From a virus (Duplodnaviria; Heunggongvirae; Uroviricota; Caudoviricetes), in the IMG/VR virus record IMGVR_UViG_2734482545_000011: a DNA stretch of 40,605 nt; one strand, given 5' to 3'. A program made the translations under genes and the position numbers. Positions 20,984 to 33,149 of the stretch are shown one piece after another (the stretch's first letter is position 1; the number at the start of each line of letters is the position of its first letter). Under the pieces are notes generated by a model that was given only the letters and a program-made list of their open reading frames with translations, searched no databases and was not told the DNA's origin.

Positions 20984-21198
20984 TATTCACCTCTCGCAGC
21001 CTTGCGCTTATCTTCTTTAATCTTGAAATAAAGGTTTGTCAGGTACGTCAGCAGGCCAAATACCAGACTACCCAGCACACCGATTGCAGCCCACTGTGAC
21101 GGAGTTACTCTATCGAGCAACTGTAAAAACCAGTAGCCAGCACTGCCTGCGGAGGTGCCGTAGGCAATGCCTGTTGAAATTTTGTCCATGGATTTCAT
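20983..21198 (-). CDS. pinholin (phage 21 S-type), dual-start
   Basis: [71 protein letters not shown]; two TMDs; Met1-Lys-Ser-Met4 dual-start motif; GGAGGTGAGG RBS. Closely resembles the phage 21 pinholin as I recall it. Confidence 0.85.
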
Positions 21199-22483: not shown

Positions 22484-23014
22484 ACAGCGAATCAGATCAA
22501 ATAAAACGCACATTTGTTAACATTTACACAAAGTCTGCGTGGGATATTCTGAAAGAATATCCATAATGTGGAGAGAATCTATTGAAGTGCATGGTGCCGG
22601 GTGCCTCCCGGTGAACAAAATGTTCGTGATACCTGTCGGCGACAGAAAAGGTTAATGGTATCACCCCACCGCACAGGGGGATTCACCATGCAGGAGTTTT
22701 CTTAGCAAACTCACTGCGCGCCCGGCAACTCCCAACCACATAAAATGCGGAGTTTGTGGCATTTATGCATATAACTCGCAGGAATTATCTTAAAAAACTG
22801 ATGTCGATCCGGATTAAAAAGAAGCAGGTCATCATCAGATGACTGGAAAAAAGGAAAACAAAAAATACTCATCATACAGTTTTGATTGCAGGGATGAGCC
22901 TGCTATGCACAATATGCAGAATATAAGCAAGATAAAAATATGCAGGCATATTATTTCGGATCTTGTTATTAACACAACCTTTTTAATAATCATTTGGCAT
23001 ACAATAAACCAGCC

Positions 23015-31686: not shown

Positions 31687-32109
31687 TTAATGAACAATGA
31701 CAGAATCGTCGGAAGACCCGCCGCCGCTGAAATGCGCTTTCCGGTAAACGGCTTGGACTGCATCATCATGCGCATCAATTGCCGTACTTAACGCTTCCTG
31801 CGCCGCCAGTAATGCACGGCGTTCCAGGGTATCGAAGATGCAGAGTCGGTGACGCAGCTCGCGCGGAAGGATTGCCAGAATTGCTGGGATCAGCTTCTGA
31901 ATTTTTTCTCTTTGCGTTTTCGTTTCACCTTTCAACCAACGGTGATAGATATTCTGCTGATTATTCCAGTCCTTGCCTGGTACCAGGGGCAATTCGCCGC
32001 CCCCCTGGCGCAGATATTCTTCAGTAATGGCATTGGCTACCCATGCCTGCCCTTTTTCGGCTGCCAGGGCTAACAACACTGACTCGATGTGCTCATGCTT
32101 GATTTTCAT
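31687..32109 (-). CDS. ydaT: YdaT (CII-like regulator / reported toxin)
   Basis: 140-aa ORF immediately downstream of the Cro-like ydaS; size and position match Rac YdaT. Confidence 0.7.
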   Translation of the reverse strand: MKIKHEHIESVLLALAAEKGQAWVANAITEEYLRQGGGELPLVPGKDWNNQQNIYHRWLKGETKTQREKIQKLIPAILAILPRELRHRLCIFDTLERRALLAAQEALSTAIDAHDDAVQAVYRKAHFSGGGSSDDSVIVH

Positions 32110-32360
32110 GAATCAACTCCCATCAGCTTTTTCGTAGTAGTTTTATTTCTGCCAATAGTTAAAATTACATCAGCAGAAAATAATCCGTTTGATGCATGAG
32201 CGATTTTTTCAGCGTAATTTGTTTCGCCGGTATATTCTGTGCGAGGCAATTTTCCGTTATCCATCCATTTGTAGATTGCTCTTTGGCTGACACCACAAAC
32301 GTCGGCCACAACAGAAACGCGAACAGTTTTGATTACATCTTCAAGTGTTTTCTGGTTCAT
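32106..32360 (-). CDS. ydaS: Cro-like HTH regulator YdaS
   Basis: Start placed at MNQKTLEDVIKTVRVSVVADVCGVSQRAIYKWMDNG (HTH) with GAGGG RBS; divergent from racR. Confidence 0.65.
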   Translation of the reverse strand: MNQKTLEDVIKTVRVSVVADVCGVSQRAIYKWMDNGKLPRTEYTGETNYAEKIAHASNGLFSADVILTIGRNKTTTKKLMGVDS

Positions 32361-32439
32361 ATCACCCTCACAATGTGAACTTTGAGTACATGCTATAACA
32401 GAACTGACAGTACATTCAAGAGTGAATATCATTGAACTT
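32361..32439. promoter_or_regulatory. racR-ydaS divergent promoter/operator region
   Basis: 79-bp intergenic region with the near-palindrome TCACAATGTGA (32368-32378) and two direct AGTACAT repeats (32385-32391, 32409-32415). Confidence 0.45.
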
Positions 32440-32859
32440 ATGGTTCATGAAGATAAAGCGCGTAAAGAGTTCGCCAGTAGGCTTGCGCTAGCCTGTGAAA
32501 ACGCTGGTTATGAACAACATGGAAGGCAGGCAGAAATTGCCCGTCGAATGAAATTAACACCAAAAGCGGTTAGCAAATGGTTTAATGGCGAAACAATTCC
32601 TCGCCGAGAGAAATTAAGGGAATTAGCAACACTCATTGGAACAACACCAACCTATCTTTTGGGAGAGGATACAGAAGAAAGTGGACAGGTACGTTTCTAT
32701 CAGGAGTTAAATCCAAGACAAAAAATCATCATTGACCTTCTGGACGAGCTCCCTGACAGTGAGACAGATGAACTTTTAAAAACTCTTGAGGAGAAAAAAC
32801 AGAAGTACAATGCAATTTACGAAGAGCTAGCACGAAAGAAAAAACAAAAAGCCTCTTAA
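32440..32859 (+). CDS. racR: prophage repressor RacR (CI-like)
   Basis: HTH segment GRQAEIARRMKLTPKAVSKWFNGETIP; divergent from the Cro-like gene; acidic and basic C-terminal tail. Confidence 0.75.
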   Translation: MVHEDKARKEFASRLALACENAGYEQHGRQAEIARRMKLTPKAVSKWFNGETIPRREKLRELATLIGTTPTYLLGEDTEESGQVRFYQELNPRQKIIIDLLDELPDSETDELLKTLEEKKQKYNAIYEELARKKKQKAS

Positions 32860-32929
32860 ACCAGCATAAATCCGGTAGCGTCCCCCTCCGGGTTTGTGCT
32901 TCACTTTATCCCATCTCATTTTTTTACAC

Positions 32930-32982
32930 ACAAAATGTACTTATAGTACTTTACATCAATGAACACAAAGTACATTATATAC
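32930..32982 (+). promoter_or_regulatory. operator-like repeats downstream of racR (OL-like region)
   Basis: ATGTACT-TAT-AGTACT inverted repeat (32935-32950) and a further AGTACAT (32969-32975) beside TATATA; the same heptamer as in the racR-ydaS region. Confidence 0.35.
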
Positions 32983-33149
32983 CTACCAACCCACCCCGCC
33001 CCACAGAACGCAGGGCAATACTTCGAGTTACCAGGCAGTGGTCAGGGGTTAAGTAGCCAGCCCGAGGCGTATGAACATGACGGCAGGGTTCAGATTTTGC
33101 AGTGCAGCAGGTTTCAGTTCCGCCACCCGGCGTTAAGGGGAGAGATAAG

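Follow-up and report, generated by a model that had tools for sequence, protein, structure and literature searches.

Several phage and prophage immunity switches are described in enough detail to be set beside the locus analysed here. The CI repressor of phage HK022 binds adjacent operators cooperatively and forms loops between OL and OR (PMC8053113). The repressor of the Stx2 phage 933W prefers half-sites with G at position 2, A or T at position 3, A at position 4, C at position 5 and T or C at position 6; in a model of this repressor on DNA, K42 and K46 make contacts at operator positions 2-5 and E51 does so at position 6, and a K46A substitution abolishes sequence-specific binding (PMC3317979). 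In the CI proteins of HK022, 933W and lambda, the S24 domain mediates dimerisation and cooperativity; binding of the 933W repressor to OR1 and OR2 is not cooperative, and behaviour thus varies even inside the family. Leaderless repressor mRNAs have been reported for lambda cI, paaR2 and racR. The published operator of RacR from the Rac prophage of Escherichia coli K-12, TAGGC-N3-GCCTA, is plainly visible in the K-12 sequence.

The window, meaning the whole 40,605-nucleotide stretch of Caudoviricetes DNA that was analysed, very probably carries at 32106-32990 a lambdoid immunity cassette of the HK022/933W type. This cassette comprises a cI-type repressor gene, a divergent cro-type gene, OR and OL, and it is set in a Rac-like backbone. 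Its features are as follows:

32106-32360, minus strand: cro-type regulator gene (84 aa, RefSeq start), divergent from the repressor gene and read from PR
32368-32378: palindrome TCACAATGTGA, perfect 5+1+5, over the cro-like Shine-Dalgarno sequence
32375-32391: predicted operator OR1, GTGAACT TTG AGTACAT, adjoining the cro-like gene; perfect GWAC-N5-GTWC match
32390-32419, minus strand: predicted PR of the cro-like/ydaT operon, -35 TTGAAT (32419-32414), read from the sequence
32399-32415: predicted operator OR2, CAGAACT GAC AGTACAT; perfect match, 24 bp from OR1
32427-32432, plus strand: predicted PRM -10 TATCAT from a promoter scan (10/12 matches), with a -35-like CTGACA at 32404-32409
32432-32448: predicted operator OR3, TTGAACTTATGGTTCAT (TTGAACT TAT GGTTCAT); perfect match, 33 bp from OR2
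32440-32859, plus strand: cI-type immunity repressor gene (139 aa), N-terminal HTH_3 (Pfam, E 1.8e-9) and a short helical C-terminal domain
32935-32951: predicted operator OL2, ATGTACT TAT AGTACTT; perfect match, overlapping the first two bases of the PL -35
32950-32978, plus strand: predicted PL, TTTACA-17-CATTAT, from a promoter scan (9/12 matches), directed toward the ydaG, ydaF, kilR-recET side
32959-32975: predicted operator OL1, ATGAACA CAA AGTACAT; perfect match, 24 bp from OL2

The repressor is 100% identical to the 'CI repressor' of phage Tritos. Its DNA-binding domain shares (tblastn) 47.5% identity with HK022 CI over residues 4-102 and 50.7% with 933W-type CI over residues 1-73, and the cro-type protein is 62% identical to HK022 Cro (E 2e-34). 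Residues K42, S45, K46, W47 and E51 are invariant in an alignment of eight repressor sequences. Among the base-contacting residues defined in 933W (S41, K42, K46, E51), the last three are kept, while residue 41 is a proline, as in HK022. The original prediction had named the two genes racR and ydaS, an identity that did not hold up. BLASTP matches to the K-12 proteins cover the HTH only, over 33 residues for RacR (E 1e-4) and 18 residues for YdaS (E 0.03), and the genes are positional equivalents, not orthologues; judged by their protein relationships, they are an HK022/933W-type cI and cro. Literature searches on Tritos, the RefSeq protein accessions and CP-933R returned nothing relevant.

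Pfam detected no S24 peptidase domain (PF00717) in the window repressor, which ends at residue 139 with a helical hairpin, while the domain is present in the relatives P0021 and P0034 and in the CI proteins of HK022 and 933W. Because this domain is absent from the 139-residue protein, oligomerisation and pairwise cooperativity are not simply transferable to it. A search of solved structures and a fold search with an AlphaFold2 model of the repressor (mean pLDDT 82) gave generic XRE-type HTH matches only and nothing specific to the C-terminal domain.

Attention had been drawn to this region by AGTACAT heptamers, taken to be operator half-sites common to OR and OL around the repressor gene. Plus-strand copies do occur at 32385-32391 and 32409-32415, with starts 24 bp apart, in a divergent spacer of 79 bp as described (32361-32439). 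ATGTACT-TAT-AGTACT was likewise found at 32935-32950, and a further AGTACAT at 32969-32975 is followed by TATATA at 32976-32981. As far as can be read from the DNA, the heptamer forms the right-hand part of a 17-bp dyad with imperfect symmetry, nTG(A/T)AC-N5-GT(A/T)CAn. Since the left halves (GTGAACT, CAGAACT, ATGAACA) repeat the half-site in degenerate form, with G(A/T)AC kept in all five sites, these are not direct repeats of a heptamer. The original prediction was therefore right in seeing a half-site and wrong in treating direct repeats as the binding unit, which is a dyad of 15-17 bp; its list of sites held four of them and missed OR3, which straddles the repressor ATG (32440-32442) and contains no AGTACAT. 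The cassette thus holds five perfect matches to the symmetric 15-17-bp operator core G(A/T)AC-N5-GT(A/T)C. Spacings are 24 and 33 bp in OR and 24 bp in OL, exactly as in HK022 and the enterobacterial relatives, and the two regions lie about 560 bp apart. Even with one mismatch allowed, neither an HK022-style third OL site nor a far-right operator was found in the window.

The five sites have counterparts in characterised switches. OR1 is collinear with HK022 GTGAACTTATGGTTCAT and with OR1 as deposited for a 933W-like record, OL2 with HK022 ATGTACTATTGGTACTT and the deposited 933W-type OL2, and OL1 with HK022 ATGAACTTTAAGTACAT and the deposited 933W-type OL1. The position of OR2 and its CTGA(C/T)A centre are unchanged in all enterobacterial relatives. 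OR3 is identical or nearly so in the HK022, Tritos, Salmonella, Klebsiella and Citrobacter loci, and the deposited OR3 of the 933W-like record likewise lies over the cI ATG. It is this homology to characterised switches, together with the conservation described below, that supports the reading of the heptamers as operator half-sites. The dyads are predicted to bind a dimer of the repressor HTH domain, and the whole is a new member of a known operator family for which binding is predicted.

An AT-rich heptamer might also recur by chance in AT-rich intergenic DNA and have no function. The motif was picked after the sequence had been inspected, and a frequency no higher than elsewhere in the prophage had been named in advance as evidence against operators. 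On that measure, the count across the window is not raised (five copies against 3.3 expected, with 26 of 100 shuffles reaching five), although four of the five copies fall within the two non-coding stretches that flank the repressor gene. In a recurrence test using non-overlapping counts, dinucleotide shuffling produced some 7-mer at least twice in each flanking stretch 4 times in 20000, and control placements made elsewhere in the window did so in 2 of 3867 cases. Perfect GWAC-N5-GTWC matches number six across the window, where 1.23 would be expected. The stretch 32377-32973 holds five of the six; its Poisson probability, a post hoc figure, is about 2e-11, and a 24-bp spacing is repeated among these five; the sixth perfect dyad lies outside the cassette, at 22613. 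Comparison with other genomes tells against chance. Related immunity regions, more than 50 of them, repeat this arrangement of sites, their cores staying constant while the centres vary, and these loci are not near-identical copies, repressor identity falling to about 36%. The comparative sequence data effectively refute recurrence by chance, to which we assign a negligible probability.

In GenBank record GQ499361 (933W-like), the deposited OR1-3 and OL1-2 coincide exactly with the pattern matches, with spacings of 24/32 and 24 bp. A further 43 genome loci from Enterobacterales, Pasteurellaceae, Vibrio and Pseudomonas contain 194 perfect matches against about 15 expected. Nearly all of these lie at -65, -41 or -8 from the repressor ATG or form 24-bp pairs downstream; OR1 takes the -65 position in most of the 43 loci, and a 24-bp pair of sites is found 3' of the repressor gene in most related loci. 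Sites in distant loci were located with the pattern itself, and information content at its eight specified positions is partly circular. Among five sequences of the same immunity, the core columns never vary (0/36), while the central triplets and the DNA between sites do, other non-coding columns varying at 16/70 (Fisher P 7e-4). Across 19 P41-type loci, 4/36 core columns are variable against 45/70 others (P 9e-8). Gap-free, ATG-anchored column conservation across all loci was not relied on, as it is blurred by the OR spacings of Haemophilus and of the Ser41 group. What is directly observed here is the sites with their spacing and conservation, and the relationship of both proteins to the HK022/933W regulators.

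An alternative is that the sites are real but are bound only by the cro-type protein or by the CII-like YdaT, or that the functional unit is the heptamer as a direct repeat bound by monomers. There are some grounds for such a reading: footprints of YdaT in K-12 extend over the racR-ydaS intergenic region, inverted as well as direct repeats have been noted in CP-933P, and conservation in the window is much better for the right halves than for the left, which produces a direct-repeat look. The left halves, however, keep the G(A/T)AC core in every site as noted above, and this core equals the half-site preference measured for the homologous 933W repressor. Residue 41 of the repressor recognition helix and the base immediately outside the core G vary together: with Pro41 the base is T in 211 of 274 half-sites and C in one of 274, whereas with Ser41 it is C in 42 of 78. 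As for YdaT, its box is TTGATT-N6-AATCAA, and the sole good match, at 32099-32116, lies outside OR and OL; YdaT was rejected as the heptamer binder. We consider this set of alternatives highly improbable.

Operators of the K-12 RacR or CP-933P type were also considered for the cassette and rejected, neither motif being found there. With one mismatch allowed, TAGGC-N3-GCCTA has a single match in the window, at 21161 and outside the cassette, and the CP-933P repeat consensus GTTTAGTAA has none in 32100-33000.

How promoters and operators relate is the weakest part of the explanation. The predicted PR fits the promoter consensus poorly and did not reach the cut-off of the scan, and we infer it. 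Its -10 would be either TATAGC (32397-32392, spacer 16) or TAGCAT (32395-32390, spacer 18), and it is collinear with TTGACT...CATAAT/TAATAT of HK022. OR2 occupies the spacer of this predicted promoter, while OR1 abuts its -10 and covers its predicted start. The CTGACA centre of OR2 supplies the -35-like hexamer of the predicted PRM, whose -35 thus lies inside OR2. With seven bases between the PRM -10 and the A of the ATG, a leaderless repressor mRNA is predicted. All nine loci displayed have a TAnnnT hexamer that ends on the first base of OR3, and a published HK022 construct (loopometer supplement) carries the label 'PM -10' on the stretch just upstream of the cI ATG. The PL -35, TTTACA, is invariant in the window and in the Tritos, HK022, Salmonella and Citrobacter loci; OL1 extends over the PL spacer and three bases into the -10.

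From this arrangement we infer binding, order of occupancy, cooperativity, promoter assignments and the action of Cro. Repressor at OR1 and OR2 would block PR, and with it the cro-like gene and ydaT, OR2 filling the PR spacer and OR1 reaching from the -10 to the start point. Repressor at OL1 and OL2 would similarly block PL. Since OR3 lies over the start of the presumed leaderless PRM transcript, its occupancy would turn off repressor synthesis, a form of negative autoregulation. Cro may bind the same sites as the repressor, by analogy with other lambdoid switches. The distance between OR and OL would make looping possible, as shown for HK022 CI.

One element of the original prediction fits this scheme poorly. 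The palindrome TCACAATGTGA does lie over the GAGG Shine-Dalgarno sequence of the minus-strand gene starting at 32360, as had been reported, and it was regarded as part of the system. Its perfect symmetry at this position and its retention in Tritos could suggest that it serves as an extra operator or controls translation of the cro-like gene. Yet an 89%-identical relative has it in broken form (TCACAGCGTGA), and the more distant relatives displayed (the Salmonella, Klebsiella, Citrobacter, HK022 and 933W-type loci) lack it while keeping OR1-3. The left arm complements the cro Shine-Dalgarno region, and the right one is merely the left half of OR1. A role for the palindrome is accordingly improbable, and its symmetry is probably fortuitous.

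The prediction of operators is in itself textbook lambdoid biology. The cassette was found in 1047 of 5426 complete E. coli genomes, O157:H7 strain 86-24 among them, and the "racR/ydaS" of about one fifth of sequenced E. coli Rac-type prophages is not RacR and YdaS but an HK022/933W-type cI/cro pair with predicted operators of its own. What has been learned from K-12 RacR about essentiality, operator sequence and cross-talk with C proteins should not be carried over to such strains. The five sites, the leaderless PRM and the PL predicted here give a concrete map of a very common immunity type. It is also conceivable, though unlikely, that a Rac-type prophage repressor without a self-cleavage domain could engage in cross-talk with co-resident phages of the 933W/HK022 type, since its half-site core, G(A/T)AC(T/C), is that measured for the 933W Stx2-phage repressor and is shared with HK022. 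If so, a repressor that RecA cannot cleave might bind 933W/HK022 OR and OL, leading to damped induction of Stx phages or partial superinfection immunity, and conversely, operators of the window type might titrate the Stx-phage repressor. Against this, the DNA-binding domains are only about 50% identical, and residue 41 and the base that it tracks differ between the groups.

HK022 is among the closest known systems. Its OR and OL align base for base with those of the window, the half-sites and the 24/33 and 24-bp spacings being common to both; OR3 lies over the cI ATG, the PL -35 is TTTACA and the PRM -10 has the same position (HK022 site positions were taken from its sequence and from the summary in PMC8053113). 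However, HK022 CI has 235 residues and an S24 self-cleavage domain, whereas the window repressor has 139 and a short helical C-terminus. HK022 also has an extra perfect site between cro and cII (L003 2163) that has no equivalent in the window, and which presumably corresponds to the operator described as lying about 300 bp downstream of OR (PMC8053113). HK022 continues with cII and nun, and the window has ydaT and the Rac early-left genes.

Phage 933W shares with the window a 15-bp symmetric operator with the core G(A/T)AC(T/C), three OR sites with OR3 over the cI ATG, only two OL sites with no OL3, and the contact residues K42, K46 and E51. It differs in having Ser41 and a preference for C outside the core G, where the window has Pro41 and T, in the S24 domain of its CI, which the window repressor does without, and in an OR2-OR3 spacing of 32 bp rather than 33 bp.

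The K-12 Rac prophage resembles the window in backbone and gene order, with ydaT 99% identical and ydaG, ydaF, sieB, kilR and recET flanking the region; both have a YdaT box at the start of ydaT, and the K-12 racR mRNA is leaderless, as is predicted for the window repressor. Membership in Rac is nevertheless confined to ydaT and the flanks: K-12 RacR and YdaS are unrelated to the window repressor and Cro-like protein beyond the HTH, and the K-12 divergent spacer, at 123 bp, is longer than the 79 bp of the window. An inverted-repeat motif of its own, centred on 3 nt, is present in K-12 Rac both in the divergent region and 3' of the repressor gene beside a PL-like promoter, as in the window. A different motif in the same two places, next to the same flanking genes, points to a swap of the immunity cassette, which we count in favour of the operator reading.

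CP-933P of O157:H7 is similar to the window in having a CI-like repressor without a peptidase domain, a Cro-like YdaS, a CII-like YdaT, operators common to OR and the PL region, and a repressor mRNA that is leaderless, as predicted for the window. Beyond its repressor gene it carries the toxin-antitoxin pair paaA2-parE2, which the window lacks, no toxin-antitoxin ORFs being found between the window repressor and OL. Salmonella relatives of the window repressor have a HigB/HigA-like pair downstream of the repressor gene.

Lambda, finally, has operators unrelated in sequence to those of the window. Its OR3 is upstream of the transcript start, whereas that of the window lies over it; its OR2 abuts the PRM -35, which OR2 of the window overlaps; and it has three OL sites to the window's two. 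The two switches nevertheless share 17-bp pseudo-symmetric operators, divergent PR and PRM at OR, PL at OL beyond cI, and a leaderless cI mRNA, which in the window is predicted.

The AGTACAT heptamers on either side of the repressor gene (139-aa product, 32440-32859, plus strand) had been proposed as half-sites of an OR and an OL, and they lie where the original prediction placed them. Two copies, at 32385-32391 and 32409-32415, stand 24 bp apart (start to start) in the divergent spacer, which is indeed 79 bp long (32361-32439). Downstream of the gene, ATGTACT-TAT-AGTACT occupies 32935-32950, and a further AGTACAT at 32969-32975 is followed by TATATA at 32976-32981. With regard to frequency in the rest of the prophage, there is no window-wide excess, the two strands of the 40.6-kb window together holding 5 copies where 3.3 are expected, a count equalled by 26 of 100 shuffles, but the placement around one gene is non-random. 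Four of the five copies sit in the two non-coding stretches flanking the repressor gene, two per stretch, an arrangement reached by any 7-mer in only 4 of 20000 dinucleotide shuffles of those stretches and, with equivalent stretches placed elsewhere in the window, in 2 of 3867 cases. The AGTACAT signal is one of placement, not of window-wide abundance.

Judged from its sequence, each AGTACAT makes up the right-hand half of an imperfect 17-bp dyad. The half-site reading is thus supported at both OR and OL, but the unit is the dyad, and a third site in the spacer, OR3, had been overlooked because it carries no AGTACAT. The five predicted sites are:

OR1, 32375-32391, GTGAACT TTG AGTACAT
OR2, 32399-32415, CAGAACT GAC AGTACAT
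OR3, 32432-32448, TTGAACT TAT GGTTCAT, spanning the repressor ATG
OL2, 32935-32951, ATGTACT TAT AGTACTT
OL1, 32959-32975, ATGAACA CAA AGTACAT

All five match GWAC-N5-GTWC perfectly, with spacings of 24 and 33 bp in OR and 24 bp in OL, and the window contains six such matches in total against 1.23 expected. The sixth, GTGAACAAAATGTTCGT at 22611-22627, is remote from the immunity region, in a non-coding gap between small ORFs; with about 1.2 expected per window it is probably a chance match without meaning. The palindrome TCACAATGTGA was also found as described, at 32368-32378, overlapping the GAGG Shine-Dalgarno sequence of the minus-strand gene that starts at 32360. It is retained in Escherichia phage Tritos, broken in an 89%-identical relative, which reads TCACAGCGTGA, and absent from all other relatives compared. 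Its left arm is the complement of the Shine-Dalgarno region and its right arm merely the left half of OR1, and we treat this unconserved palindrome as fortuitous.

A Rac-like prophage of E. coli or Shigella makes up the window. Its minus-strand ydaT (31687-32109) encodes a protein with 99% identity to K-12 YdaT, and near-identical genomes annotate ydaU, ydaF, sieB, kilR, racC, recE, recT and intR around it. The names racR and ydaS, however, do not hold for the two divergent genes: the repressor aligns with K-12 RacR over 33 HTH residues only (E 1e-4), the 84-aa divergent protein (32106-32360, minus strand) with YdaS over 18 residues (E 0.03), and neither is an orthologue. RefSeq labels both merely as helix-turn-helix proteins. 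By alignment, their true relatives are HK022-/933W-type regulators. Tritos has an annotated CI repressor that matches the window's repressor at 100% identity. Over its first 73-102 residues the latter shares 47.5% identity with HK022 CI and 50.7% with 933W-type Stx phage CI, and in this N-terminal part identity reaches 62-72% with the CI proteins of Klebsiella, Raoultella and Citrobacter phages. The divergent, cro-like protein aligns with HK022 Cro at 62% identity (E 2e-34). Homology to K-12 Rac ends at the ydaT start codon on one side and resumes just past 32982 on the other, and by this comparison the cassette (32106-32990) is a classic lambdoid immunity-cassette swap in a Rac backbone. K-12 Rac has its own repeated motif at the same two positions, the published RacR operators TAGGC-N3-GCCTA, which are absent from the window's cassette, as is the CP-933P repeat GTTTAGTAA.

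The arrangement recurs widely. The 24/33 OR spacing is common to Tritos, two metagenomic E. coli variants, two Salmonella prophages, the Klebsiella phage Kp4864-1 and the Citrobacter phage Omnitron, all of which also carry the 24-bp OL pair except Kp4864-1, where no pair was found within its 1.5-kb flank. A further 43 loci, one per species from Enterobacterales, Pasteurellaceae, Vibrio and Pseudomonas, contain 194 perfect matches in 252 kb against about 15 expected, nearly all of them either at -65, -41 or -8 relative to the repressor ATG or paired 24 bp apart, 0.5-3 kb downstream. Haemophilus prophages keep the three-site OR layout, offset to -84/-60/-27 from the repressor start. Among five same-immunity sequences, picked by gene homology and not by motif, none of the 36 core columns varies, as against 5/13 central-triplet, 7/30 inter-site, 2/9 position 7/11 and 2/18 outer columns (core versus other columns, Fisher P 7e-4), and in O157:H7 strain 86-24 only one of the 14 differences over 885 cassette positions falls within an operator, at the OL2 centre. 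Across the 43 loci and L003-L011, the base immediately outside the core G tracks residue 41 of the repressor's recognition helix. With Thr40-Pro41 it is T in 211 of 274 half-sites and C in one, and with Ser40-Ser41 (the 933W group) it is C in 42 of 78. These counts come from related loci and hence are not independent-sample statistics; direct contact near residue 41 would predict this covariation. These comparisons support the dyads as operators of the window's repressor.

Three promoters are predicted around the sites:

PR, minus strand, -35 TTGAAT at 32419-32414 and -10 TATAGC or TAGCAT within 32397-32390
PRM, CTGACA at 32404-32409, 17-nt spacer, TATCAT at 32427-32432 (promoter scan, 10 of 12 consensus positions)
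PL, TTTACA at 32950-32955, 17-nt spacer, CATTAT at 32973-32978 (promoter scan)

PR, a weak consensus match unreported by the scan and placed by collinearity with HK022, would drive the cro-like gene and ydaT. OR2 fills its spacer and OR1 extends from the -10 over the start point, and bound repressor would therefore occlude RNA polymerase. At PL, OL2 overlaps the -35, which is invariant among HK022-like loci, and OL1 overlaps the spacer and -10. With 7 nt between the PRM -10 and the A of the ATG, the repressor mRNA would be leaderless, as are those of lambda cI, paaR2 and racR; a TAnnnT hexamer occupies precisely the position of this -10 in each of the nine displayed loci. Since OR3 covers the PRM transcript start, its occupancy would shut off repressor synthesis, and in 933W OR3-bound repressor does repress PRM. 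The -35-like hexamer of PRM sits at the centre of OR2, 17 bp upstream of the conserved -10. This centre reads CTGA(C/T)A in enterobacterial relatives (L003-L009) and CTGAAA in a 933W-like record, whereas other operator centres vary freely, which suggests a dual constraint. Roughly 560 bp separate OR from OL; HK022 CI forms a loop joining its own OL and OR (PMC8053113). Directly 3' of the repressor stop, a strong RNA hairpin at 32863-32900 (-19.4 kcal/mol, z -5.45, none of 200 shuffles as stable), unreported by a consensus terminator scan, probably ends or insulates the PRM transcript before PL. The Cro-like protein would be expected at the same sites by analogy with lambda, HK022 and CP-933P. 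We infer this switch logic from anatomy and homologues.

The sole zero-mismatch YdaT box in the window, TTGATTTTCATGAATCAA (TTGATT-N6-AATCAA) at 32099-32116, covers both the start codon of ydaT and the end of the cro-like gene. It matches the site published for the CII-like YdaT proteins of Rac and CP-933P, and in K-12 the box activates a reverse promoter for the repressor gene. On the other side, Salmonella relatives (repressor 62-65% identical) carry a HigB-toxin/HTH pair between the repressor gene and the OL pair (L008 2553-3220; L009 2588-3255), parallel to paaA2-parE2 behind paaR2 in CP-933P; no toxin/HTH insert occupies this interval in the window.

The cassette is present, over at least 80% of 32106-32990, in 1047 of 5426 complete E. 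coli genomes, mostly at 95-99% identity, including O157:H7 strain 86-24 and APEC O1, and a literature search found no paper on it. HK022 and 933W already exemplify the operator family, half-site and OR/OL layout, and the operators would come as no surprise to a specialist; what is new is a predicted member of that family with a different repressor C-terminus, and the practical value lies in the corrected racR/ydaS labelling and a site-by-site map for experiments.

Domain search and alignment found no S24 (LexA-like) domain in the repressor. Its AlphaFold2 model (mean pLDDT 82) has a five-helix HTH domain (1-74), a disordered linker (77-87) and a helical hairpin (92-138), and a fold search with it returned generic XRE-type regulators only. 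The Klebsiella, Raoultella and Citrobacter proteins closest in the DNA-binding domain retain S24. RecA-stimulated self-cleavage is the usual induction route, and without S24 it would be unavailable, while dimerisation and cooperativity would have to come from the short helical domain. RacR and PaaR2 are similar in principle, with homology in the HTH only. There is a slim chance that such a non-cleavable repressor cross-talks with Stx-phage operators, for example in O157:H7 86-24, because the half-site core is common to it and 933W CI.

The 933W repressor recognizes a symmetric 15-bp site with key positions G2, A/T 3, A4, C5 and T/C 6 (PMC3317979), exactly the half-site core of the window. In the 933W repressor-DNA model K42 and K46 touch positions 2-5 and E51 position 6, and K46A abolishes sequence-specific binding (PMC3317979); in our alignment all three residues are invariant across the window's repressor and its relatives. 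In the 933W-like GenBank record GQ499361, the deposited OR1/OR2/OR3 "repressor binding site" features and OL2/OL1 are exactly the pattern matches, with spacings of 24/32 and 24 bp, compared with 24/33 and 24 bp in the window, and OR3 over the cI ATG. HK022 and its closest relatives carry one more perfect match, CGGTACTAAAAGTACAT, in the cro-cII interval (2163-2179 in the HK022 record, L003), found also in L024, L029, L032 and L034 at about -330 from the repressor ATG; it agrees with the far-right CI operator described some 300 bp downstream of OR, which is involved in immunity (PMC8053113). In the window the cro-like gene overlaps ydaT, so there is no counterpart. Elsewhere, OR and OL of HK022 align base for base with those of the window, and by these comparisons the switch is HK022/933W-like at the DNA-binding level, its repressor being a truncated-architecture variant of that family.
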